This document shows, one piece after another, positions 6,783-54,293 of a stretch of 64,000 bases of DNA; the first letter of the stretch is position 1, and each line of letters begins with the position of its first letter. Position numbers and translations under genes: made by a program. The DNA comes from Malacoraja senta. Its lineage: Eukaryota. Below the pieces are notes generated by a model. That model was given only the letters and a program-made list of their open reading frames with translations, was not told where the DNA came from and made no database searches. The stretch lies in assembly GCA_038087875.1 (NCBI GenBank), contig CM075994.1, positions 1,738,001-1,802,000 on the forward strand, written 5' to 3'.

Positions 6783-6982
6783 NNNNNNNNNNNNNNNNNN
6801 NNNNNNNNNNNNNNNNNNNNNNNNNNNNNNNNNNNNNNNNNNNNNNNNNNNNNNNNNNNNNNNNNNNNNNNNNNNNNNNNNNNNNNNNNNNNNNNNNNNN
6901 NNNNNNNNNNNNNNNNNNNNNNNNNNNNNNNNNNNNNNNNNNNNNNNNNNNNNNNNNNNNNNNNNNNNNNNNNNNNNNNNNN
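6783..6982. other. Assembly gap (200 N)
   Basis: Run of N. Confidence 1.
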
Positions 6983-9184: not shown

Positions 9185-9313
9185 CATCTGCACATTGGGG
9201 TCTCTTGCCAGACGTTACCAATTAACAAGCGGCAGCCAATCAGATTTAAAGCTAATTTGTGTTTTATAGTCAGTACAGACAATCTGTCAGTCATTTTACT
9301 GAACCCTAGTGGT

Positions 9314-9902
9314 CTATTTCCACTGTTGCCATAAGTATCCTGATAAAACTTCTGGTCGTTCTCAGATTTGTAACCATAGTTACCAGAATAATCACCACCT
9401 TGGAGCGGTTGCTGAGCAATAGGTTGTGAGCCCCAGTTTTGATTATTGGTCTGGCGCCGCTTCGAATCTGGCTGGTTGTACCCATCAGCTTTTCGTTTGC
9501 CTCCTAAATTTCCACCGCGGCCACCCCTCACACCACGTACCCCGCGGGCTCTCTGCTGTGCCTGGGAACCCCTCTTGCACCACGAGCACCTCTCCCTGCC
9601 ATTTGACCACGTTGTGAGAATCCAGATCTTCGTGGTTGGGAAACTCCACGACCTCTAGCGGGTGGTGCACCTCTTCCACTTCTGCCACTTCTTCCTATAG
9701 CAGTTGTTTGATAATCATCATAACCATAATATGGATCTTCATATCCTCCACGATAATCATGGTAATCGTAGCCATAATAATCATATAATCTTCATAACTA
9801 TAGTAATCTAGTGGATAACTGTAACCTCCTCTTGCTCCACGATTTCTGTTTCGTGTTGGAGGGGGCATACGGGGTGGAGGGTAGTAATAGTAATCCTCAT
9901 AC
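9314..9902 (-). CDS. SYNCRIP: SYNCRIP last coding exon (Tyr-rich, RGG, NLS, Q/N tail); three 1-nt deletions as assembled
   Basis: YEDYYYYPPPRMPPPTR...GGKRKADGYNQPDSKRRQTNNQNWGSQPIAQQPLQGGDYSGNYGYKSEN...QQWK*. Frame shifts near 9785, 9570 and 9330. Confidence 0.93.
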
Positions 9903-11321
9903 CTGGAGTTAAAAAGATACTTGATTTGTAGAAAGCATGATTAAAAGGCAAGCAATTTTAAATTAAAAGCAGTGTATAAATTCATATCTTCCCAAATTAT
10001 AACCATAAATTTCATACAGATAGTGAATGGTACTCAAGCTGGTATGCAGCAGGTATGGAAATCTAACTACGCAAATATAATAAATTGCTATCAAGAAAAT
10101 CAAATTTCTTTATAAGGGCAGTTACACATGTACAAGATATACACTAAACAAGCAGGTGAAACTGGCAGATGGAGTTCAATTATTTTTCTTAGACAAAAAG
10201 GTTAAGGGCATCGTTGGGACAAAATGTACTTAGTTGTATTTCTCACTATCCTTCAAGTACTACCAGCATGGATTCAAGCGCTACCATAATGCGTAACGTT
10301 GATAACCACACATCTCCTGTAGTAATCAATCTTTGGCACGATGATGCTTTACAAAAAAAACTCAAAAAGCGCAGGGGTACAAAACGCAATCATTTCAGGA
10401 GGGTTAGGGTATAGAAGTGAGAACGGGACACCACAGATAAAACATAGCCTTGCAGTTGTGAAAACTACTTTCAGCTTTGGACTCAGCATCTCTAGTAAAG
10501 GCAATGGGCCTTGATAGCAGATTTAGCACAATTGCAGAATTGGGGGGGGGGGGGGGTGGTGTTATCTCCACGGATTATATATGTTTTAGGATGATTCTCT
10601 ACTCGCTAAGCTCCAGCCAACAGGGCAGGTTAATGGATTAGCTATTGCACATCAGTTCACCATGCAGCAAGACACATGGGAACAGCTGGGCCAAATGAAT
10701 TAGCAGAATTAGCCAGGATCCATCTAAATGGCACGTCTCAAGAGTATGAATGGCACCCCCCCCCCCCTAATTTGAAATGAATGCCAATTTAAAGCACATC
10801 AAATCTAGCACAGGGAAAGTCAGTAAATATTAAACAGGCGGAAGTTTCCATTCTCCTAGTTAACTGAGAGCACAATAGAAGAATAATTCAGCTTTGTGTT
10901 CTTTTGTGCACCCGAACTTCAAGGAATAATAACGAGGAGTTCAACTGTAGATTTACAACACAATTTCATTTTGTACTGAAGCTAAAAATCATACCAGTTA
11001 ATAACCAAAGTAGTTCCACCTGCTGGCCAAAGTATTTGCTAGACTGAACAAAATTAGTGTTTCAAATTTCAAAAGGCAAAACCAGCAGCTGAAGTGCAGG
11101 TTTGTGCAGAAAGGATTCACACTTGCAACATGCTGGTAAGTGAATCATTAAAAACAGCTCCTGATCTACCACCAACCAACCTCTGACCTGGCAACAGGAT
11201 TTACCGTTGGACCATCTGAGGCAGACTACAGGCATTACCACAGCCACTCCATTTTAACTGAAACAATTCTTCAAAAATCTGTCAGCTACAATTGAACAGC
11301 CGATCTATCAGATGTACTTAC

Positions 11322-11443
11322 AGCTGAGATCTAGCAGCTTGCCTCTGAGCCTGGCGTTCCTTCTTCTTCTTGTCCGGTGGCTTAGCAAGAACAATTTCAA
11401 TATTTTCACCTTCTAGGTCTTTCCCATTCATTTCATTCATTGC
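11322..11443 (-). CDS. SYNCRIP: SYNCRIP coding exon (end of RRM3)
   Basis: 122-nt AG/GT exon: AMNEMNGKDLEGENIEIVLAKPPDKKKKERQAQRQAARSQ. Confidence 0.96.
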
Positions 11444-11593
11444 CTGCAATGTGCAATTGGATGAAACTGCTTTACAGATGTATATACTATCAGAAATAAG
11501 CAATTAAAAAAGATTAACAAGCTTAGTCAAACAGCTGCATGGAATATTGCAAAGTCCAACCTTTCACTATGCTGCTTTCTACTGAATCTTTAC

Positions 11594-11743
11594 CTTTACA
11601 GCGCCGTCTCTTTCATCAAAGTGAACAAAAGCATAATCTTTGAGTTTCTTCACCCGTTCCAGTTTGCCAAAGTGACTGAAGGTTTTTTCTAGTAATTCTT
11701 CTGTTACTGTACTGGCCAAATTACGAACAAACAGCACCTTCAC
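11594..11743 (-). CDS. SYNCRIP: SYNCRIP coding exon (RRM3)
   Basis: 150-nt AG/GT exon: VKVLFVRNLASTVTEELLEKTFSHFGKLERVKKLKDYAFVHFDERDGAVK. Confidence 0.96.
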
Positions 11744-14128
11744 CTGCAAATGAAATGTTTAAATGAATTATATCCAAAGATAAACATTCTATTGATCAGC
11801 ATTAGTAACAGTAAAAAAAACACAATAAAAAGTAACAAGCAACACTGCAGTAGCCAAGTACATGCTCTAAGATGGAAGTTAGTCATGAGGCACATAAAAA
11901 ATGTTGTGGCACTTTTAGGATTCAACTTTTATTTTCCGCTGTATAGTTTATTCCCATCATGTGGTCACTGCTTGGAAGGCCAATATCGCTAGTTGCCTTT
12001 GGGATAGATGAGCAGAATTCTTGAACCATTGTCCAAAAGGCGAAGGTGGGTATTCCCACAGTGCTAATCAGCAGGGAATGCATGAATCTGAAGCAACAAT
12101 GAAGTGCTGGCAATGTGTTTCAAATCTAAGATGGGGTGAGTACATGAGGATGATATTCATAGGCACACCTTACTTGAGACCAGAAGCACTGTTTCAGAAT
12201 CTGAGGTAGGTCGACATTGTTCACCTTAGTTTAGTTTAGAGACATAGCATGGGAACAGGTCCTTACACTAGCGCTATCCTACACTCTAGGGACAATTTAC
12301 TATTTTTACTGAAGCCAATCAACCTACAAACCTGTATGTCTTTGGTGTAGGAGAAAACCGTAGCATCCGGGGAAAACCCACGAGGTCACGGGGAGAACGT
12401 ATAAATCCCATACAAACAACACCCATGATCAGGATTGAAACCGGTTCTCCAGAGCTGTAAGGCAGCAACTCTACCGCTGTGCCACAGTGCCACCATGTTA
12501 TGGTGTGTGTGCATGTTTAAGGTCATCCATGTAATGCCACTTTGTCCTGGATACTTTCAGAATACACTGCCACGCAGTCCATCACACTCTTGCATGGGCT
12601 TTGGGCTGTCAAGAGGAAAGGTTCTCAAAATATCCAGTCTCTGATCAGCATGAGGTGATGAGCATTTGAGGAAGAGACAAACCTCATGTTGATAGTGGAT
12701 ACTTTGGGGTTAACATTGCCAATTAAATGCTATATGTGGTATATTCGTGCAAATAAAAGCTCATCAGCCCAAAAGTAAACATTATCAGGGACTTGATTCG
12801 TGCAATTTCAGACATTCTCTGTGAATTTACTTATAATCTTTTAGGTGCTGTATCTCAGTGCCAGATACCCAGGCTCAACGCTGACCTTGGGTGCTGCCTG
12901 TGTGGAGTTTGCATATTCGCCGTGACGATGTGGGATTCTTCCGAGTTCCTCCCACATCCCAAAGACGTGCAGGCTTGTAAATTAATTGTCCTGACTAAAT
13001 TGTCCTGAATGTGCGGGGAGTGGATGGGCGAGATAACAGAACTAGTGCGAACAGGTGATGGATGGCATGGACCCAGTGGGCCAAATGGCCAGTTTCCATG
13101 CGGTTTCTTTCAACCAATTAATCATAATTCTGGCTCACCAAAGATTCAAGATTCAAGAGAGTTTATTGTCATGTGTCCCAGATAAAGAGAATGAAATTAC
13201 TGCTTTGCTTCAGCACAACACCATATAGTAGGCATGAATACAGAACAGATCAGTGTGTCCATATACCATTATATAAATATATACACATGAATAAATAAAC
13301 AGTTAACGTGCAAATAAACAGATAATGGGCTATTAATGTTCAGTTTTGTTTGAGTTGAGTTGAGTTGTGGGGAAGCAGTTATTCCTGAACCTGGACGTTG
13401 CAGTCTTCAGGCTCCTGTACCTTCTACCTGAAGGTAGCGGGGAGATGAGTGTGGGTCCTTGATGATGCTGCCAGCCTTTTTGAGGCAGCGACTGCAATAG
13501 ATCGCCTCGATGGTAGGGAGGTCAGAGCCGATGATGGTTTACCACCAAAGGGGTCTGAAGAAGGGTTCCGACCTGAAACGTCACCTATTCCTTTTCTCCA
13601 AAGACTGCTGAGTTACTCCAGCATTTTGTGTCTTTAAAAGGGTTGCATAAATGCAATCTTTATATGATGCATGCTAAAGAGCTGGTAAAATAAAGGGGGA
13701 ATCGGGAACATTTGATATTTAGGCAAATATGGGGAATGCTACTTAAATAAGTAGTTTTCTCCTGAAAGCATCACATTTTTCAACTGTTGAAGTTACACCC
13801 AATGGAGATTATGCAACAGCACTCTTGGCTGAAGATACTGAAGAGCCACTCACCACTGAATGAAGCGACTACATATACATGGCAAGTGCAGCGCAAATTG
13901 GAACAAGACCGAGACTCTTGGATCTAAATGGGATTTCACGATGGAATTCAGTCTGAGAAAACATCCCAGATCAAGGGAAGGAAAGTGTATTCAGGGTTCC
14001 CAATAATAATCAACAGAAGTGATGACAACAATGATCAACTTTCATAGCGTGAACAAATGCAAGGATTTTAAATTAGACAACACCACTAAGTCTACGTCAC
14101 AATTAAAACAATGCTCAAGGATTAGTAC

Positions 14129-14334
14129 CTTTGACATGACCTCTGGATCAGGATCCTCGATGGGGTCTGCCCATTCCACCGTTACAACGTTACCCCACAC
14201 CTTCACTTTCCCACTCATAAGCCTGCGTCTAGCCTGGGCTGCAGATTTATGATCCTCAAACTCCAAGAAGCAGAAACCCCTATTCTTCTTCTTGTCATCC
14301 GGTTGATGATACAATATCACATCTGTGAGCCCCT
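14129..14334 (-). CDS. SYNCRIP: SYNCRIP coding exon (RRM2)
   Basis: 206-nt AG/GT exon: EGLTDVILYHQPDDKKKNRGFCFLEFEDHKSAAQARRRLMSGKVKVWGNVVTVEWADPIEDPDPEVMSK. Confidence 0.96.
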
Positions 14335-15719
14335 CTGGCAAAATAAAATGCAAATGTTTTTTTTTAATTCCACTGCTCTCTCTACATTTATCTAAATGAT
14401 AACGCAGATCCTCTCAGAGGTTATGTAAAGTTTAAACATTTTTTGAGATACATGAAATAAAGGTGCAATAACAGCAACATTCCCAAAGTTTCCCCTGACT
14501 CAAGGCAATACAAAGAAGCTGATTATCCTACAACTTGATCAGGACAATAGTTCACAGAAGGGATTGCTAAACGTGACATTGTGCTGCAAAAACGATATTT
14601 TGTTCTGAGTTACTTCTTTCCTGTTACCTTTACCACTCCACTGCACACCTGTCAATGAGTGCGTCAGGGGTCATGGGGAGAAGGTAGGAGAATGAGGTTG
14701 AGGGAAAGATAGGTGAGCCATGATTGAATGGCAGAGTAGATTTGATGAGCCGAATGACTTAACTCTGCTCCTATGATTATTGTCTATGACATTATGAAAA
14801 CATTCAACTTCAGGGAGTGCAACCAGTCACGTGCTGGGAAGAGATACTGCACCAAGTCTATGATCAGCAGGAAGCTGTTCTCCTCAATGAAAGACCACAC
14901 AGATGATCTAGATGTCAGTGAAAGGTTTGCCCCAATGTGATGTAGGGCAGAATCTATCTAGAGTGAAAGGAAGACACAAGCGTTCAGGAAGCATACAACT
15001 TATGTAGACTGGAGCTTGAGCGCCCAGCCAGGAAATAGCATAAACCAGGGTAGACACAAGATGCTGGAGTAACTCAGCAGGCGAGGCAGCATCTCTGGGG
15101 AGAAGGAATGGGCAACGTTTCAAGTCAAGACCCTTCTTCAGATGTTACGGGTCTTGACCCGAAACGTTGCCCATTCCTTCTCTCCAGAGATGCTGCCTGA
15201 CCCGCTGGGTTAATCCAGCATTTTGTGTCTACCTTCGATTTAAACCAGCATCTGCAGTTCTTTTTTACACATTAACCAGGGTATGTACATCCTTATACAA
15301 TCAATAGACAATAGGTGCAGGAGTAGGACATTCGGCCCTTCGAGCCAGCACCTCCATTCAATATGATCATGGCTGATCGTCCACAATCAGTACCCTGTTC
15401 CTGCCTTCTCGCCATATCCCCTGACTCCGCTATCTTTAAGAGCTCTATCTAACTCTCTCTTGAAAGCATCCAGAGAATTGGCCTCCACTGCCTTCTGAGG
15501 CAGAGAATTCCACAGATTCACAGCTCTCTGGGTGAAAAAGTTTTTACAACTTAAGGGAATCAATGGCATGACCAACGGTATTGATGCACAGATGAATCTT
15601 GGGGCCACTCACACCAGATGAGGCAATTATTTTCCTCCCACTCGATTTGTGAGCCTTTGGAACTCTTGCTCAAGAGAGTATGGAAGCAGATTATTTGACT
15701 AATTTTGAAACAAAGGAAA

Positions 15720-16420
15720 GATCAGAGGCGAGGCCACATTTGGAGTATTGTGTACAGTTTTGGTCACAGAGAAGATTTATGAGGATGTTGCCGGAACTGG
15801 CCTACCCACAGAAGACCAAGGGTTGTGGTGGAAGACAGTAATTCTGGCTATTTGTCTGAGGTGTTCCGCATGGATGTTCTGAGACCTCTGTCCGAGAGAT
15901 AGATATAAATTACTTGGATGTAAATGTAGATTAGTTGGTTAGTAAGTTTGGTGGCATTGTGCACAATCTATACAGCTATGACTGTCAAAGTATACAGCAG
16001 GATGTAGATCAGCTACGGGTATGGGTGGAGAAACTGCAGATGGAGTTCAATCCAAGCAAGCGTGAGGTGTTGTGGGAGACTAAATGTAATGGGAAAGTAT
16101 ATAGTTAATACCAAAACCATCAACAGCATCGATGAACAGGGAATCCAAGTCCACAGCTCCCTGAAACACAAGTCCACAGCAACACAAGTAGATAAAGTGG
16201 TAAAGGCAGCAAAGGCTCATAGGTCGGGACAATGAAGAGTCAGGAAGTGATGACGTAGCTTCATAGGACTTTAGTAAGTCCGCATTTGGAGTATCGTGTG
16301 CATTACAGGACATGGCGGCTTTGGGAGGAGGTTTACCAGAATGATGGCGGCATTAGATGTAGGGAGAGTTTGGACAGACTTGGATTGTTTTCTCTGGAAT
16401 GCAGGAGATTGAGGGGAGAC
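15720..16420 (+). mobile_element. Old CR1-type LINE fragments
   Basis: Degenerate CR1 motifs (HLEY, LDRLGLFSLECRRLRGDL). Confidence 0.65.
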
Positions 16421-16948
16421 CTGCAAAGCCAACATTTTACAATTCTGGATAAGAGAATAATTGACTAGCACTATTAACGGATAGAATGAGCAAGCTTATC
16501 TTAGTTATCAGTGAAAATGGGACATACTAAGCATGCGTATCTATATGACCATATTACAAAAACTTATGTCAATCCCAAATCTAGCTACATCATGAATTGC
16601 ATCTTCCTTGACAGAATGAATACAAGTGGTTAACAGAAACAAACAGGCAACCCAAACCACTGGTAATTCCATAAAACGTAGCTTCATTTGCAATCCCAAA
16701 ATTTTACAAACTGTCAAAACAGCAGAAGACATGGGAACTTACTAAACTTCTTCAGTCTAAAATGCAAATTAAGATCTTCGGAAATTAAGTTATTTGCAGT
16801 GGAACTATCAAATTAATTCAAAAACTTGTTGACCTGCTCCTTCCAACTTCAAACCAGTGAAAACTGTACCATTGTCACTCCCACACGTGATTACATAATT
16901 AACAGTATGTGTAAACTAGACAACAGAATGAAGACAAGGCAATTTTAC

Positions 16949-17084
16949 CTGTAACTTTTCCAAATTCTTCCATTATTTGTTCTTTTGTCTTGCTTTTTGG
17001 AATGGATCCCACGAAAAGTCTGTTGTTTGCCACAGAAATGCAAACACCAATGTGTTTACCAGGCCGAATTTCATGGTTATCGCA
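16949..17084 (-). CDS. SYNCRIP: SYNCRIP coding exon (RRM1/RRM2 junction)
   Basis: 136-nt AG/GT exon: CDNHEIRPGKHIGVCISVANNRLFVGSIPKSKTKEQIMEEFGKVT. Confidence 0.96.
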
Positions 17085-17167
17085 CTGAAAATTGGACAAC
17101 TGAGTCAGTTTATGAACCCTAATTAAAGGAATAGATTATAGTATATGTAACAATTGCAAAATCTCAC

Positions 17168-17344
17168 CAATTTGACAGCCTCCTGCGCTGAATCTTTGGA
17201 GCAAAATGTGACGAAAGCATACCCTCGATTTAAGCCAGTTAAAGGATCCATCATCAGACGCAAATCCCAAATTGGCCCAGCTTTTTCAAAAAGGGGAACA
17301 AGTTCATCCTCAAAAAGATCCCTTGGTATTTTTCCTACAAATAT
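17168..17344 (-). CDS. SYNCRIP: SYNCRIP coding exon (RRM1)
   Basis: 177-nt AG/GT exon: [59 protein letters not shown]. Confidence 0.96.
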
Positions 17345-17948
17345 CTACGACAAAATTGGACTGATTAAAAAAAATCAAATATGCAACGACATGAATTTTC
17401 ATGGTCAAGGAATTGGTAGAAATGTTTCTCTACATCAACTATCAATGGGATGTTCTAAAACAAATTAGCATCTTTAAATTCTACTAATGACTGAAATAAC
17501 CAATGGTCAAATTTAAATTTCGACCAACCAGAACTAATCCTAAATCACATTTATTATTAATTTCTTCAAACCCCATGCATTATAGAGTGGGTGTGGAGAG
17601 GATGTTTCCACTAGTGGAAGGGTCTGGGAACCAGAGGATATAGCCTCAGAATAAAAGGACATACCATTAAAAAGGAGATGAGGAGGAATTTCTCTAGTCA
17701 GAGGGTGGTGAATCTTTGGAATTTATTGCTACAGACGGCTATAGAGGCCATGTTATTGGGCATTTTTAAGGCAGATATTGACAGATACAAGATTGGCAAG
17801 AGTTATGGGGAGAAGGCAGGAGAATGGGCTTGAGAGGGAAAGATAGATCAGTCATGATTGAATCGCAGAGTAGACTCAATGGGCCGAATGGTCTATTTAT
17901 GCTCCTATGACTTAGGAACATTATCACTAACAATAAACACTAACTCAC

Positions 17949-18062
17949 CTCAGTACCGCTGTTAGGTTGAGGACCCGAATGCACAGCATCAGGCGGGGGA
18001 CCACCATACTTCCGCTGTCCTGTGGTAACATCAAGCGTATAGCCTGTCCTTTCTAAGAGAGC
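17949..18062 (-). CDS. SYNCRIP: SYNCRIP coding exon
   Basis: 114-nt AG/GT exon: [38 protein letters not shown]. Confidence 0.96.
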
Positions 18063-18613
18063 CTAAGTAAACACAAACAAGCATGGCCATCGTAACTCAG
18101 CAATTGCAATTAAGAAACTTAATGATAGTTGCAGAAACACTTTTTCACCCCATTAAGGACAACAAAAACGAGGCTAATCTTTAACTCAGGCTGTTAATTT
18201 GGAAGGAATAATTTAGTACAATGCCCCGAATGGGCAATTGAGACAAACCATTTGCTCCAAGTATCTAGCAGCATTCATCTACTTACAAAGACTTTGGATC
18301 GTCATGATTAAAGGCAGTCAAGATGCTTCTTAACAAATGAGCATCCTGGCTAACATTTGAAAGGACCAGACAAGCAATGTTTTTCACTTAAGTGTCCCGA
18401 TCTACATCAGCCAACTTAATCCAACAGTCTGACCATAGCAATGCCCCACAGCCATCTTTTTAGCCTCACTGTCTCCCAACAATCTTTTTTTGCAAATGAC
18501 AAAATGTCTTTGTATAATGAGATGAGTCTACTGAGGCACCAGAGAAATGCAAAAATATTTTAAAATAATTGAGCAAACAAATACTATGTCCATTGTTAAT
18601 GTTGGATCCCTAC

Positions 18614-37619: not shown

Positions 37620-37625
37620 TTTATT
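37620..37625 (-). terminator. Polyadenylation signal of the transcobalamin-like gene
   Basis: AATAAA about 85 nt downstream of the stop codon. Confidence 0.6.
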
Positions 37626-38693: not shown

Positions 38694-39249
38694 TTACAGA
38701 CGGCGCCCGTAGTCAGGATCAAACCCGGGTCTCTGGCACTCTGGTACCTCTGCGCCTACCTCCGCGAACTGTTGCCCTGCAATGCTGAGAACTATATTCT
38801 GCACATTTATGGTACCAACCTCAACTACCTCATCTGGCAGCTCATTCAATACATCCACCACCCTCTGTGTGAAAAAAGTTGCCCCTCGGGTTCCCATTAA
38901 ATCTTTCCCCTCTCACCACACCCCTATTATTGAATTTTGGCATCAGTAGAGTCATAGAGAGTCATAGAGCATGGAAACAGGCCCTTCGGCCCAACTTGCC
39001 CATGCTGACCAACAACGTACTCAAGTCTCTGGCATAGGATGATGAACCGAGAACATTGTCAGAGGCAAGGATGTTACTATCTGAGCCCTGATCCATTTAT
39101 CCATTTAATCCTTGTACTGAAAAGTTATTTCAAGACGTATGGAATTGAATGCTGTTTGCTGCAAGTGGCTGAGCCATTTAAATTATTTCTAAGCTTAATT
39201 TCAATAATAACTTTCCAAATGTGTCAAGGTTGCTGTTTTGCAGACTCAC

Positions 39250-39433
39250 CCTGATTGGAGTCGCAAGTTTGATTTCCGATTTCCAACATCGAAATTCCCT
39301 CAAAAGTTGGGATGACATGGAAAAGTTTTTTTGGTGCGTTAAATGTTCCTTTAGGGATTTCGATCAGCAATCGTTGCAAGTTGTTTATGCATTTGAAGGG
39401 GCGGAATGGCATCTGATGAGTAACATGCAGAGC
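39250..39433 (-). CDS. Transcobalamin-like gene exon 6
   Basis: 184-nt AG/GT exon: ALHVTHQMPFRPFKCINNLQRLLIEIPKGTFNAPKKLFHVIPTFEGISMLEIGNQTCDSNQ. Aligns to TCN2 ...CLKARVALLASLQDGAFQNALMISQLLP...DC. Confidence 0.85.
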
Positions 39434-40580
39434 CTAGTAATATAAAAGCAAAGACATCCAGAATGATTTTGAGATCAGTTCAATCAACTGTATTTGGTCA
39501 AAGATAGATACACCCGAAGCTGAGCAACTCAGCAGGACAGGCAGCGTCACTGGAGAAAACCAATAGGCAACGTTTCGGGTCAAGACCATTCATCAGTGAG
39601 TGTCAGGGGAGAGGGAATGAAGAGATATGAAAAGCTACATGGAACAAATTAATGAAAGTCATGCAAAAATACAGAAAGCCAGCAACAATGATCAAGGAAA
39701 GGTGGAGCCCACAAAGCCCATAGGAGTCCACAGCAATTTCTTCCATGCAAACCAGCATCTGCAGTTCCTTCCTACATATACTATGTTTGGTTAAAGTTCA
39801 GAAGTGAGTGAATTTGACAGGCAGTGAAGATTTCAAGCTCAGACAGCACCCATGGTCAGGATCAAACCTGGGTCTCTGGCGCTGTGAGTCAGCGGCTCTA
39901 CCAGATGTGCAACTGTGTCTGTAATCCACTATTTTACACTCATCTACTTAATGTATCGAACTCTTGTGCCTATTGTATAGAACATAAAACGTAGAACAAA
40001 CAGCACACCACAAGAACATTCCCTACATCCCACAATGTCTGTGCCGAACTTGCTGCCAAGACCATGCACATAATCCATATCCCTCCATTCCCTACATATC
40101 CATGTGCCTATCCAAAAGCCACTTCAACACCACTATTGTATCTGCCTCCACCAGCACCCCTGGCAGCGCATTCCAGTCACTCACCACCTTCTGTGTAAAA
40201 AAAAGTTGCCCTGCATATCTCCTTTAAACTTTGCCCCGCTCACCTTAAAGCTAATCCCGCAAGTATTTGTTTTTTCCATCCCCGTGAAAAGGTTCTGACT
40301 GTCTACCCTATCTATGCCTCTCATAATTTTAGAAACTTCTATTAGATCTCCCTGCAACCTCCAGCAACCTCTCCCTGTAGATAACACCCCCTAATCGAGA
40401 CAGCATTCTGGTAAACTCTCTCTGCTCACAAACAGTCAACAATCAGGAGGACAGTGAAAGTAGTCGGGGAACTAGATTTGGAGAAAGACGGAGAGAGAGA
40501 GAAAGCAAGGGTTATTGAAGTTAGAGAAAGCAATATTCTACTATTTTGCATTCCTTTTGATGGCTTACAGTGTTTTACCA

Positions 40581-40657
40581 TGTGGCGGCCAAGCGTTCAT
40601 AGCGACATCGCTTTTTGATCCTTCGATGTCGGCTCTTATCATTGTGAAGCAGAATTC
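40581..40657 (+). pseudogene. 28S rRNA fragment (about 77 nt, domain V)
   Basis: TGTGGCGGCCAAGCGTTCATAGCGACATCGCTTTTTGATCCTTCGATGTCGGCTCTT...ATCATTGTGAAGCAGAATTC matches conserved eukaryotic LSU rRNA with one substitution and a 3-nt deletion. Confidence 0.92.
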
Positions 40658-40913
40658 CCCTCAGCCAACAATGAACCATTGTCCATTTCCTTGACCATTG
40701 TCTGCATTGATCTGTCATTTTCACACCTTACATGCTCTTTGTACCTTTCCATATCTCTAGTTTCCCTCTCTCCTAACTCTCAATCTGAAGAAGGGTCTCC
40801 ACCCAAAACATCAACCATTCCTTCTCTCCAGAGTTGCTTCCTGTCCCGCTGAGTTACTCCAGCATTTTGTGTCTATAAACTAACTTTAATCAAGGTTTCC
40901 ATTTGGGACTCAC

Positions 40914-41086
40914 CTGAACAGCAAGGGGAGTGGTGCAGACTGCCCCAAAGAGATTATTCTCCCCCTGATAGCTGAGGATTATAAGAAGCAAGCGCACGAT
41001 GGCCCTTTCAATCCACAGAGGGGTGATCGACTTGAATTGTATGCGATGCAAGCAAGTGAAAGCAAGGACAGTCATGGAGGCAGCAT
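40914..41086 (-). CDS. Transcobalamin-like gene exon 5
   Basis: 173-nt AG/GT exon: NAASMTVLAFTCLHRIQFKSITPLWIERAIVRLLLIILSYQGENNLFGAVCTTPLAVQ. Aligns to TCN2 DTAAMAGLAFTCL...GHFGNVYSTPLALQ. Confidence 0.9.
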
Positions 41087-41279
41087 CTACAACGTAGAGA
41101 GTGAAGACCGACCATTATTGCCATGGCACTATTTTAGTTTATCTCTTTCATTTTAAATGAAAATACACTGGATCGCAAAAACCCTCAAGATCCCACTGGG
41201 CTAACAAGCGATGGTGGGTTGGTCGGCTGTAGAGGGCAGTACTGAGCTGTCTCACGGGCACTCACGCGGCAGTGTTTAG

Positions 41280-41598
41280 TTTTTACCCCCTTTACTTTAT
41301 TTAGAGATAAACAGCGCAGAAACAGGCCCTTCGGCCCATTGAGTCCGTGCCGACCAGCGATCCCTGCGCACTAACACGATCCTACACACACTAGGGACAA
41401 TTTTACAATTTTACCAAAGCCAATTAACCTACAAACCTGTACGTCTTTGGTGCATGGGAGGAAACTGGAGAACCAGGAGAAAACCCACGTAGTCACAGGG
41501 AGAACATTCAAACTCTGTACAGACAGCACTCGTGGTCAGGATCGAACCCGGGTCTCTGGCCCTGTAAGGCAGCAACTCTACCGCTGCGCCACCATGCC
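41280..41598 (-). mobile_element. tRNA-derived SINE (HE1/V-SINE-like); representative of more than 15 copies, e.g. near 12230, 21575, 42360, 45340, 48070, 53570, 54470, 54945 and 57220
   Basis: Pol III A box TGGCGCAGCGG and B box GGGTTCGATCC, shared central body, (CTAAA)n-type tails. Confidence 0.85.
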
Positions 41599-41599
41599 A

Positions 41600-42345
41600 C
41601 CCCCTCTCCAGGTACTTTCCCATGCAACTGCAGGAGATGCAACACGTCCCTCGTCTCCATCAAGGGACCCCAACAGTCCTTTCAGGTGAGGCAGAGGTTC
41701 CTCACTTGCACCATCTCCAACCTCATCTACTATATCTACTTTTCCAGGTATGGACTCCTATACATCGGTGAGACCAAGCACAGGTTTGGCGATCGTATCG
41801 CTGAACACCTTCACTCAGTCCGCCTCGACCTATGTGATCTCCCAGTTGCTAAATACTTTAACTCCCCGTCCAATTCCCACACTGACCTTTCTGTCCTGGG
41901 CCTCCTCCATTGTCAGAGTGAGGGCCAATGCAAATTGGAGGACAGCACCTCACATTTTGCTTGTGTAGCTTACAACCCAGTGGTATGAATATTGATTTTG
42001 CTAACTTCAAGTAACCCTTGCATTCCCTCTCTCTCCGTCCCTTCCCCACACTAGTCTTTGTACTAGTTTCATTGTCGTCCTGGTGAGTTTCATTGTCTGT
42101 ATAACTCGTTATCACCTAGCCCACTGCCAATAGTGGAACTTTGTGGGGTCCACCCTTTCTTGATCATCTTTACTTTCTGCATATCTTTAATTAATTTGTT
42201 CTATATCTCTATATGTCACCTTCTATATCTCTCATTTCCCTTTCCCCTAACTCTCAGTCTGAAGGAGAGTCGCGACCCGAAACATCACCTATTCCAGAGA
42301 TGCTGCCTGACCCGCTGAGTTACTCCGGCTTTATGTGTCTATCTT
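41600..42345 (+). mobile_element. Penelope-like element 3' fragment (GIY-YIG)
   Basis: TCTISNLIYYIYFSRYGLLYIGETKHRFGDRIAEH...PVAKYFN, followed by a degenerate hammerhead motif near 42259. Confidence 0.85.
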
Positions 42346-42933
42346 CCAGTTTAGTTTTTAGTTTAGTTTAGAGAGATACAGTTTGGAAACAGACCCTTAA
42401 GCCCACTGAGTCTGTGCCAACCAGCGATCACCCCATACACTAGTGCTATCCTACACACTTGAGCCAATGTACAGAAGCACACAAGCCAATTAGCCTGCAG
42501 ACCAGCATGTCTTTGGAGTGTTGGTGGAAACCGGAGTACCCGGGGAAAACCCACATGGTCACAGGGAAAATGTGCAAACTCAGCACAGACTGCACCCAAA
42601 GTCAGGATCGACCCGGGTCTCTGGTTCTGTCAGGCAGCAACTCTACCGCTGCGCCATCGTGTGGCGGCAGGCAGTAGAAAGGACAGTTGGGTATTTTGTA
42701 ACTTTGTCGACACCAAAATGTGGCGACACTTGTGTACTCATTGTAGTTTGTAGTACGCATTGTGTAGGTTGTATGCATAATAAAGCATTTCACTGTACCT
42801 AGGTACCCCAGGTACATGTGACAATAAAGCATCATTCATAAAGTATTATTCATTAATTCATTCAGACTGTTTGACTTCCAACTTGTCTGCTAAATCCACA
42901 CATTAGCTTCCAGCCTGGGTAAACCTCACTTAC

Positions 42934-43089
42934 TGATATCGACTGGTGTTATGAATGGGGCCTGCCTTCTCAGAGCCCTATCAATGATGTCCTGCACAAT
43001 GTAAGTTGGGGCATTTTTCTCTTCGAAGCAGAGAACTAGGATTGCTGAAGAGATATGGTAGAAGTCCGTCAGGGGTTGTCCTTTGGTTT
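42934..43089 (-). CDS. Transcobalamin-like gene exon 4
   Basis: 156-nt AG/GT exon: ETKGQPLTDFYHISSAILVLCFEEKNAPTYIVQDIIDRALRRQAPFITPVDI. Aligns to TCN2 GHPHTSYYQYGLGILALC. Confidence 0.88.
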
Positions 43090-46000
43090 CTGTAAGATGG
43101 AAACACAGTGTTTACTAGCAACTTCAGAGGAGTTGTGGACGTAGCCCAGACCATCACGCAAACTAACCTCCCTTCCATTGACTCAATCTACACCATGCTA
43201 CCTCGGCAAAGCTTCCAGCATAATCCAGACAGCATTCTGCATTCTGGTAAACTCTCTTTGCACTCTTTCCAAATCCTCCACATCCTCCCCGTAATGGGGC
43301 AACTAGAACACCACGGATATACAAAGATTGTTACTGATCTGTGGCATTTTATCGAGATGCATCACAGCATGGTTTGGGAACAACTCCATCCAAGATCGCA
43401 AGAAATTGCAGAGCAATTTTCACACAAAGGGTGGTTCCATACATTTCACACAAATGTATGGAACCAACTGCCAGAAGAGGTAGTTGAGGCAGGGACTATC
43501 CCAACATTTAAGAAACAGTTAGACAAGTACATGGATAGGACAGGTTTGGAGGGATGTGGACCAAATGCTGGCAGGTGGGACTAGTGTAGCTGGGACATGT
43601 TGGTGGGTGTGGGCAAGTTGGGCCTAAGGGCCTGTTTCCACATTGTACAACTCTATGACACTCTATGACCTGCGGATGCAGCCCAGACCATCATGCAAGG
43701 CAACCTCCCTCACACTGACTCCGTCTAGACTTCACGCTGCCTCGGCAAGGCCACCAGCATAATCAAGGGCCAGCCTCACCTCTGTCACTCCCTCTTCTCC
43801 CCTCTCCCATCAGGCAAGAGGCAAACGCACACCTCCAGATTTGCAGACAGTTTCTTCCCAGCTGTTATCATGCAACTGAATCATCCCATCACCAACTAGA
43901 GAGAGGTCCTGACCTCCCATTTACCTAATTGGAGACCATCGGACTATCTTTAATCAGACTTTACTGCACTTCATCTTGCACTAAACCTTATTCCCTATAT
44001 CCTGTATCTGTGCACTGTGCATGGCTTGATTGTAATCACGTATAATCTTTCCGCTGACTGGATAGCATGCAACAAAAAGATTTTCACTCTACCTTGGTAC
44101 ACGTGACAACAAACTAAACAAAAATAAATATATGCCTAAGAGACATTCAAGCAACCTGGGGTGTCCACTGGCAAAAGGATGAAATGATCATAATGTACAA
44201 CAACACTGCCTTAGTTTATCAAACGCATCACTGAGGCCATAAGACCATAACACGTAAGAGAAGAATTAAGCGATTCAGCCCATCAAGTCTGCTTTGCCAT
44301 TCTATCATGGCTGGTCTGATCTATTTTTTCTGCCCCACCCCAATGTCCTGCCTTTTCTCCGTAACCTTTGACGTCCTTCCTGACAAAGAATCCCCATTAT
44401 AAAAATACTCAATGATTTGGCCTCCACCGCAATGAATTCCACATGTTCACCACTCTCTGTCTAAAGAGATTCCTCCTCATCTCCATTCTAAAGGTACGTC
44501 CTTTTATTCTGAGGCTGTGCCCTCTGGCCCTGGACTCTCCCACTTGTGGAAGCATCCTCTCCACATCCACTCTAGTTAGGGCTTTCATGAGAAAGTGAAG
44601 TGAAGAGAGATATCAAAGATTTTATCAGGATCTCGATGAACTGAGAAAATGGGCCAAGGAATGGCACTCAGACAACTTACCGGATAGTGAAAGGCCTGGA
44701 TAGAGTGAGGATGTTTCCACTCATGGGAGAATCTAGGACCAGGGGACATAGCCTCAGAATGAAAGCATGTTCCTTTAGATAGGAGATTTATTTAGTCAGA
44801 GAGTGGTGATCCTCTGGAATTCTTTGCCACAGACAGTTGTAGAGGCCATGTCAATGGATATTTTTTAATGTAAAGAATGACATATTCTTGATTAGTAAGG
44901 GTGTCAGGGATTATGGGGAGAAGGCAAGAGAATGGGGTTGAGAGGGAAAGATAGATCAGCCATGATTGAATGGCGGAATAGACTTGATGCGCCAAATGGC
45001 CTAATTCTGCACCTATAACTTATGGACTTATAAAGTGAGTGGTGTTGCATTTTAGTAAGTAAAAGCAGGGCTGCGCTGCAGGCAATTAATGGCATGGCCT
45101 TTAAAATGATTGCATACCGGAGAGACAACGGGGCACAAGTATGTTGTTCCCTGAAAAAGGATTGGTGCAGGTAGGGCTCTGGACAGGGCATAACTGGACT
45201 TTGAGAAAACATTTGAGTAGGAGCCTCACCGTAGAATGGTCTAGGAGTTCACGGGGCAAGGAATCCATGGTGATTTGGTAGGTTGCATCCAATATTGGTT
45301 TTGTCATAGAAGGCAGAGTGTAGAGGTGGAGGGGTGTTTAGTTTAGTTTAGTTTAGAGATACAGCGCGGAAACAGGCCCTTTGTCCCATTGAGTCCACGC
45401 CGACCAGCGATCCCCAAAAACTAACACTATCCTACACACAAGACAATTTACAACTATACCAAGCCAATTAGCCCACAAACCTGCACGTCTTTGGCATGTG
45501 GGAGTCAAACTGGAGCACCCGGCAAAACCCCCCGCGATCACAGGGAGAACGTGCAAACTCTGTACAGACAGCATCCGTAGTCAGGATCGAACCGGGGTCT
45601 CTGGCGCTGTGAGCCAACAACTATGCAGCTGCGCCACTTTGCCGCCCAGAGTTGCTCAAAAATGCAAAACTTTTCTCTGGGTGCTCCGGTTTTTTCTCAC
45701 ATCCTGAAGACGTGCAGATTTGTAAGTTAATTGGCCTTCTGTAAATTGTCCCTTGTGTGTAGGATAGAACTAGTATACGGGTATGGATTGTCGGCGCGGA
45801 CTCGGTCGGCCAAAGGGCTAGTTTCCACGTTGTATCTCTAAACTAAACTAAACCACGTGAATAAGTGGTAAAGAAGGTGTATGGCAGATTTGCCTTCACT
45901 GGTCAGGTGTTGAAAATAAAAGTCGGAAAGTCATGTTGTAGTTGTATAAAATTTTGGTTGGGCCACATTTGGAGTATTGTGTCCAGTTCTGGTTTTGCAT

Positions 46001-46655
46001 TACAGGAAGGATGTGGAGGTGTTGGAGAGAGTGCAGAAGAGGTTCACCAGAATATTTCCTGGAATGGAGTGTCGTAGCAGCAAGGAAAGATAGGACAAAC
46101 TTGGATTGTTTTCTCCGGAGTGTTGAAGGCTAAGGAATGACCTATTAGAAGTACATAACTTACATAGAACTATGAGAGGCATAGATAGGATAGATAGAAT
46201 CCTTTTCCCAGGGTGGAAATATCAAATACTAGAGGACATTGGTTTAAAGTGAGATGGGGAACGTTTAATGAGAATCCACGCCGACCATCGATCGCCTGTT
46301 CACATTAGTCCTCATACACTTCCTACACACCAGGGGTAATTTACAGAGGCCAATTAACGTACAAACTCACACGTCTTTGAACTGCGGGAGGACACCGGAG
46401 CACCCGGAGGAAACCCACGCCATCACAGGAAGAACGTGCAAACTCCACACACAAACACGCACATATATGGGCAGCATCCGAGGTCGGGATCGATCCCGGG
46501 TCTCAGGCGCTGTGAGGCAGCAGCTCTACCCGTCGCGCCACCTCCCCCGCCCTGAATCACACGATGGCTTCAGTAGAAGCTGGAACTGCCAGCCGAGGAT
46601 GTTTCCTTTCGCCAGCCAGTATTCAACCCTCTTCTGGTTGTCTTCCGTAACTTGC

Positions 46656-46805
46656 CTATGTTTCTGATCTCCAGATCCAGCTTGTCTTTGACCAGTTTCA
46701 CTAGGTTCACATGTTTCTGATTGTACGTGATGCTGGCCGGGTTGAGGCAGGCCGACCGGAAAGCCAATGCGTAGCGAACCGTCAGGCCAAAGGGCACATC
46801 CTCTC
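46656..46805 (-). CDS. Transcobalamin-like gene exon 3 (GC donor)
   Basis: 150-nt exon: GEDVPFGLTVRYALAFRSACLNPASITYNQKHVNLVKLVKDKLDLEIRNI, ending AG|GCAAGT. Aligns to TCN2 GQLALYLLALRANC...LVSQLKWFLEDEKRAI. Confidence 0.85.
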
Positions 46806-51504: not shown

Positions 51505-51687
51505 CATTGGTCACTTTGTCAACGATGGTCTTTTTGAGCTGATCCAGAAGCTGATTTTCAATTGGCAGGTTGTGGCGGCTGGCGAGGCGAAGGGCGAGCA
51601 AGGTGTAAGGGTCCGGCTCTTGATCGAAATTCGTTGCGATCCGGAGCAACTGCTGCAGGAGGGGGTTGATTTCATGCTCGGTAATAG
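51505..51687 (-). CDS. Transcobalamin-like gene exon 2
   Basis: 183-nt AG/GT exon: SITEHEINPLLQQLLRIATNFDQEPDPYTLLALRLASRHNLPIENQLLDQLKKTIVDKVTN. DPYTLLALRLA corresponds to the family NPSI..(A/G)LRL motif. Confidence 0.88.
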
Positions 51688-54226: not shown

Positions 54227-54293
54227 AGCACTCCTTGCAGGAGCATCGAGAGGCAATCAGCAGTAGGATGATGGCTACTTGGTAGATGGACAT
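54227..54293 (-). CDS. Transcobalamin-like gene exon 1 (signal peptide)
   Basis: MSIYQVAIILLLIASRCSCKEC with a phase-1 GTAAGT donor. Hydrophobic signal peptide ending in the conserved first Cys; joins exon 2 in frame. Confidence 0.82.

Follow-up and report, generated by a model that had tools for sequence, protein, structure and literature searches.

A transcobalamin-family protein with an alpha domain only in the skate Malacoraja senta and in other elasmobranchs

Gene structure and fold of the product

In the skate Malacoraja senta, the minus strand of a 64,000-nucleotide stretch of contig CM075994.1 (positions 1,738,001 to 1,802,000; the window in what follows, with positions counted from its first letter) carries a gene of the transcobalamin family with seven coding exons. 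The gene runs from 54293 to 37709, a span of about 16.6 kb, and encodes a product of 310 residues that ends ten residues past C300, the last cysteine of the alpha domain; the beta domain is absent. This alpha-only member is a real and hitherto undescribed variant of the family: no paper describing one was found in our full-text literature searches, whose coverage leaves out most subscription journals. A sequence-only reading of the stretch 39250-46805, which corresponds to exons 3-6 only, had been silent on the absence of the entire beta domain. The features of the gene are listed below, with equivalent positions in human transcobalamin (TC).

54227..54293, minus strand: coding exon 1, with the start Met, a hydrophobic signal-peptide-like stretch and Cys22 (TC C3)
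51505..51687, minus strand: exon 2, alpha domain (PF01122, E 6.7e-7), AG/GT splice sites
46656..46805, minus strand: exon 3, with L91 (TC Q86), C103 and K114/K123/D127/R131; GC donor at its end
42934..43089, minus strand: exon 4, with TDFYH (a TNYYQ-type motif, Q138 to H145) and C154; without the His found at TC H173
40914..41086, minus strand: exon 5, with N186 (D176), C197, A234 (N224), the unpaired C236 (Y226) and T237 (S227)
39250..39433, minus strand: exon 6, with C258, H282 (TC Q273), the single N-glycosylation sequon N297 and C300
37709..37728, minus strand: exon 7, six codons and a TAA stop; two-domain carriers run on here into the linker and beta domain
37620..37625, minus strand: AATAAA polyadenylation signal, about 80 bases past the stop

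The missing exons were located with the little-skate orthologue XP_055495461.1 (LOC129699569, annotated as ‘uncharacterized’). Exon 7 was found through the alternative-frame tail of that orthologue (15/19 residues matching), and its stop lies at the same position as in the orthologue. The little-skate isoform X2 lacks exon 6 and uses exon 7 in the other frame, which is open in the window gene too. All acceptors are AG and all donors GT, bar the GC donor of intron 3 (46655-46654). While the little-skate start lies six codons upstream, at an ATG that is AAG in the window gene, the Met used here is at the start position of most orthologues. The N-terminal 19 residues form the most hydrophobic segment and line up with transcobalamin-family signal peptides, and the protein is likely secreted. 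A pseudogene or an assembly artefact is ruled out by the intact frame and splice sites and by the similarity of the orthologues. A DNA contig identical over 39131-39555 (0 differences) may come from the source sample. A look for expression in M. senta turned up no RNA data set with the gene, and the four sequencing runs examined behave as genomic DNA.

Membership of the family is clear at the level of both sequence and predicted structure. PF01122 was matched by 5/5 exons, the full skate orthologue scored 162 bits against a cut-off of 25, and the best sequence matches in the PDB were haptocorrin and intrinsic factor (E 1e-16 and 9e-16). The structure model, which is a prediction for the little-skate orthologue, adopts an alpha6/alpha6 barrel (Foldseek E 2e-9, template-modelling (TM) score 0.71; Atlas TM 0.82), with Z of 24-26.5 to TC, intrinsic factor and haptocorrin versus 16 for the next fold. 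It superposes on TC residues 6-297 only, that is on the alpha domain (Z 26.5, root-mean-square deviation 3.0), and its match to intrinsic factor and haptocorrin is likewise confined to their alpha domains. In an Atlas feature search, all matches stayed below 0.9.

Absence of the beta domain and origin of the lineage

Hidden or distant beta exons were looked for and rejected. Indeed, a hidden Markov model (HMM) of the beta domain, built from long family members, gave nothing at E<=5 in C18:1638001-1902000, the 264 kb round the gene, and the sole run of N (6783-6982) lies beyond the neighbouring gene. As positive controls, the same HMM did detect beta exons in the carrier genes on contigs C4, C114 and C4192. 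Downstream of the gene, no Ser/Thr/Pro-rich frame of more than 103 residues was found in the window, and the protein has no mucin tail.

The layout is shared by 12 elasmobranch species. With the little-skate orthologue as query, in a search restricted to lengths 173-553 in which some matches are short isoforms, 13 of the 14 protein matches have PF01122 alone. The species behind the alpha-only matches are skate, sawfish, electric ray, stingrays, manta, catsharks, horn shark and smooth-hound, and one further member, from a sawshark, was obtained separately. A mixed-alignment search for Tcn3 and additional alpha-only proteins was crowded and gave 3 hits. In every aligned protein the chain stops 10-14 residues beyond the last Cys. 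In Logan, six 316-residue proteins are encoded on nine contigs from little skate or a close relative; since each contig is at most 1222 bases long, compared with the 16.6-kb span of the gene, these must be spliced transcripts, and we infer that the alpha-only form is transcribed in skate.

The origin of the lineage was addressed with an alpha-domain tree of 47 rows, from which 12 sequences had been dropped (duplicates, isoforms, poor models) and which, having no outgroup, was rooted at its midpoint. The 12 alpha-only proteins form one clade (100/98), in which sharks and batoids are separate and the branching is species-like. This clade lies on the TCN1/intrinsic-factor (non-TCN2) side of a split supported at 100/100, with no resolved place within that side. 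TCN2, the reference of the sequence-only reading, is not the parent: grouping with chondrichthyan TCN2 was rejected (approximately unbiased test, p 5.6e-5), as was grouping with a sawfish protein resembling the C4192 gene (p 0.016). The sister of the clade (97/96) is Mustelus XP_078087636.1, which matches a second beta-less gene of M. senta on C6.

This C6 gene (G000:C6:33434480-33455460) has a 1055-residue Thr/Pro/Val/Ser-rich frame where the beta domain would be, and adjoins a paxillin-family LIM gene; if the latter were leupaxin, the locus would presumably be the old TCN1/CBLIF locus. Like the window gene, these alpha-plus-mucin genes have no beta domain; the window lineage differs from them in that it has no mucin tail, is present as one copy found in the M. 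senta genome and keeps the pocket motif better. In lungfish, XP_043939940.1 is a 323-residue alpha-only protein on a long branch outside the clade, with an accession next to those of two two-domain paralogues, and is possibly an independent beta loss.

The M. senta genome also retains ordinary carriers, namely TCN2 (C4), Tcn1/Gif (C114) and another two-domain gene (C4192). Published skate Tcn2 primers match exactly on C4, where two near-identical copies of TCN2 lie in tandem (C4:8429000-8465000). The pair may reflect a genuine gene duplication or an artefact of assembly, and eight consecutive His precede the cobalt-ligand position. The C4192 gene (C4192:254000-269000) has partly repeated exons and a fused copy of exons 4 and 6, with integrase-like pieces between them. 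In Lopes-Marques et al. 2014 (PMC4350170), skate Tcn2, Tcn1/Gif and the stomach-enriched Tcn3 are all two-domain proteins. Little-skate Tcn3 is, like the window protein, a divergent elasmobranch family member, but the same paper describes it as two-domain, and neither Tcn3 primer fits the window at fewer than 5 mismatches; primers and description thus set the window gene apart from Tcn3. The Tcn3 reverse primer matches the 3′ untranslated region of the C4192 gene (16/20), and this gene is probably the published Tcn3. A match of the forward primer on C2 is non-coding, with no family exon there.

Haptocorrin (TCN1), CBLIF and chondrichthyan Tcn1/Gif (AJC97680.1) share with the window protein the side of the tree, the alpha6/alpha6 barrel, the six cysteines and the lack of a cobalt-binding His. 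It differs from TCN1 and CBLIF by the absence of the linker and beta domain and by the loss of the equivalents of N224, Q273, D176 and Q138, and from the two-domain Tcn1/Gif gene on C114 by its locus. While the fold is also shared with TCN2 (Z 26.5 over TC 6-297), the cobalt-ligating H173 before the VDT motif, where the C4 gene has its His run, is missing from the window protein.

The window gene is located between a sorting nexin (Nexin_C)/hnRNP Q pair and HTR1E, and its downstream neighbour is seen in the window.

9200..18100, minus strand: three-RRM hnRNP Q/R gene (approximate span of the exons seen)

By gene order this neighbour would be SYNCRIP, and the neighbours together the SNX14-SYNCRIP-HTR1E block of human 6q14, which is not known to hold such a gene. 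As the human block would have none, the alpha-only copy probably relocated to the SNX14-SYNCRIP-HTR1E interval.

Pocket residues, cysteines and rate of change

Residues were given human TC numbers from PDB alignments (human and bovine TC, haptocorrin, intrinsic factor) and a family alignment. Six positions of the pocket stand out in the alignment to TC.

46785, minus strand: Q86 replaced by L91
43057, minus strand: Q138 replaced by H145
42934 and 41086-41085, minus strand: D176 replaced by N186, in a codon split across the exon 4/5 joint
40943, minus strand: N224 replaced by A234
39319, minus strand: Q273 replaced by H282
40937, minus strand: extra Cys236 at TC Y226

The first five substitutions had been read by eye, as the replacement of every cobalamin contact checked in a protein that keeps its six structural cysteines. 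Formal alignment places them as proposed, with the quoted motifs all in minus-strand exons, and the cysteines C22, C103, C154, C197, C258 and C300 align with those of the family; C22, the C3 equivalent, is at 54230, outside the stretch read by eye. The idea that all contacts are replaced holds for the five named changes, but these were picked from a larger set, in which T134 and Y137 are unchanged and S227 is replaced by Thr. Likewise, the change at Q86 is present but Q86 is not invariant: of 37 long members of the family, 12 carry Leu and 11 carry Gln at this site. Leu is also found there in little-skate Tcn1 and is ordinary in real carriers.

The 37 long members (400-472 residues, counted as two-domain on the strength of their length, after removal of four near-duplicates) were also used to ask where conservation was lost. 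Among 46 columns conserved in >=80% of them, 7 of the pocket and 39 others, the window protein lost 6/7 pocket columns and 10/39 others (Fisher test, p 0.005), and the ten shark and ray orthologues lost 4/7 and 5/39 (p 0.02). This test and the model superpositions bear out a fold that is kept around a degraded pocket. The signature of the alpha-only lineage includes the loss of N224 and of Q273, each kept in 1/10 sharks and rays, and the gain of 21 lineage-specific conserved residues, among them F99, L104, E156, F179, E212, L219 and F256; none is His or Cys.

That the two new His and the extra Cys form a site for a metal, heme or another tetrapyrrole, or that C236 links a partner by a disulfide, was the interpretation first attached to these changes, and we consider it very unlikely. 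Certainly, H138, H273 and C236 are all at pocket positions, H282 and C236 are common to both skates, and the mature chain would hold seven cysteines, one of them unpaired, if the signal is cleaved after C19. Yet these residues are not conserved, and the orthologues largely bear out the outcome that had been named beforehand as refuting the idea. H138 (1/12 sequences) is private to the M. senta genome, the position being Gln in 11/11 orthologues; the extra Cys236 occurs in 2/12, both skates, with Tyr in 9/10 others; and the H273 position is His in 5/12, Pro in 5, Arg in 1 and Gln in 1. Moreover, His and Cys are absent from the 21 lineage-specific columns. Within exons 2-6, changes on the skate stem fall on 29-36% of the conserved columns of each exon, and because they are spread so evenly, they are not aimed at the pocket.

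This stem is fast, with 0.70 changes/site compared with 0.2-0.25 on the end branches of sawfish and electric ray. Relaxed selection in skates, whereby a role maintained in sharks and rays has become weaker and the unusual residues reflect drift in a frame that is still open, is one way to account for this. The even spread of the changes fits it, and so do the alteration of core residues (A93V, L94R, L122V, L148S, G230N, L287F) and the restriction of H138 and A224 to the M. senta genome. However, the open frame outlasted the long skate branch: in a neutral-decay simulation over 0.70 changes/site, with substitutions only, a stop-free frame remained in 1/1000 runs, and this survival argues that the window gene is under selection. 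In addition, the two skates are 0.13 apart and 88% identical (274/310 residues), compared with 69-91% for the Tcn1/Gif exons of the same pair. Relaxed selection is improbable in our view, if less so than a new ligand site.

Cobalamin binding and possible functions

We consider it very probable that the window protein does not bind B12 tightly, because the beta domain is absent and most of the hydrogen-bond donors are gone. According to Bloch et al. (PMC5599065), human TC-alpha was free of cobalamin after purification while TC-beta retained cobalamin through washing, and TC-alpha and TC-beta assembled only with cobalamin. The TNYYQ motif is described as a corrin contact in PMC4350170.

An alpha-only protein could in principle still carry B12 by enclosing it in trans together with a separate beta domain, supplied by a beta-only protein or by a cleaved carrier. 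Beta-only proteins do exist in teleosts (PMC4350170, PMC7918649), and sharks and rays keep D176 and a TDYYQ-type motif. In M. senta, two protein searches of the genome, insensitive as they are, found beta exons at C4, C114 and C4192 only, the beta HMM found none in the 264 kb round the window gene, and 6/7 invariant pocket residues are lost in the window protein. A genome search with PF14478 for a beta-only gene found none, but it missed the known beta exons too. Altogether, such a split carrier is unlikely, and it is less plausible in skates than among the orthologues of sharks and rays.

A different use of the alpha domain is suggested by one surface of the skate proteins. According to Alam et al. 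(PMC4947154), CD320 contacts the alpha domain of TC only, via K105, K114, E118 and R122, and this domain by itself suffices for the complex. By ungapped count, both skates have K, K, D and R at these positions (K114/K123/D127/R131 in the window protein), a likeness to TCN2, and the skate proteins are basic (pI, the isoelectric point, of 8.2 and 9.3) compared with 5.3-6.8 in 9/10 orthologues. Skates might thus have regained the basic helix of TC to make a receptor decoy, which would bind CD320 or a receptor related to it but deliver no B12. This is doubtful. The match is a post hoc observation, the protein has neither W115 nor the histidines, the equivalents of K114 and R122 are found in 0/10 shark and ray orthologues, and the alpha-only lineage lies outside TCN2. 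In the M. senta genome, no CD320 gene was recognised (pattern search 0; 150/243 candidates scored; five isolated LDLR-A loci read). The more specific version, a vitamin-free secreted receptor ligand made from a half-carrier in which skates convergently rebuilt the CD320-docking basic helix, is just as doubtful; if true, skates would have a natural decoy or regulator in B12 uptake, and the protein would be the first alpha-only counterpart to the teleost beta-only binders. Separately, the search met LDLR-A blocks of identical score four times at C1:154690000-154900000, spaced by about 50 kb, in a large LRP-type gene, which is a tandem segmental repeat or a misassembly.

The reading that we favour, at roughly even odds (about 0.5), is that of a secreted alpha barrel conserved in sharks and rays, likely B12-free, which would serve as a surface module for an extracellular protein or a mucus component. 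In the history that our comparisons show, a duplicate on the TCN1/intrinsic-factor side lost its beta exons before the shark-ray split and gained a stop just past the last cysteine. The lineage then lost N224, Q273 and partly S227, keeping its hydrophobic core and six cysteines, and the fast skate stem added D176N and Y226C in an intact frame, with Q138H arising in the M. senta genome only. As TC biochemistry suggests, B12 binding would be weak or nil without the beta domain and the hydrogen-bond donors, and selection may now act on another surface, marked by the 21 lineage-specific residues. A mucosal-surface role for the alpha-only forms is suggested by the C6 sister gene, as a Thr/Pro/Ser-rich frame replaces the beta domain there.

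Several observations weigh against this B12-free surface module. Pocket enrichment is not significant for little skate alone (5/7 versus 12/39, p 0.08). The ten sharks and rays keep T134 in 10/10, Q138 in 10/10, Y137 in 9/10 and Y226 in 9/10, and have 9 Asp and 1 Glu at the D176 position. These residues could be a residual corrinoid half-site rather than a structural need; T134, Y137, Q138 and D176 may equally be helix-capping residues. Of the contact list, only the TNYYQ motif is drawn from PMC4350170, while D176, N224, S227, Q273 and Q86 are assumed to be cobalamin contacts. The model is only moderate (predicted local distance difference test score, pLDDT, of 71.7), with pocket residues 178-188 and 233-239 below 50. 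Finally, both isolated domains are able to bind, as reported in PMC11107200.

The secreted alpha barrel would not be the only single-domain secreted offshoot of the family, as teleost Tcnba/Tcnbb and notothenioid TCNL are beta-only; these retain the domain capable of binding B12 on its own, while the window protein keeps the opposite half. The family is regarded as one of vitamin carriers, of which skate is credited with three. Here, a single skate genome holds at least five kinds, of which two lack the beta domain, and one of the alpha-only lineages has been retained since the shark-ray split. This implies that the alpha barrel has a second function, probably independent of the vitamin. The lineage also offers a natural series for the alpha domain alone, with half of the pocket kept in shark and the pocket lost in skate. 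The orthologues stand in RefSeq under the automatic names ‘intrinsic factor-like’ and ‘transcobalamin-like’, by which their function is likely misstated.

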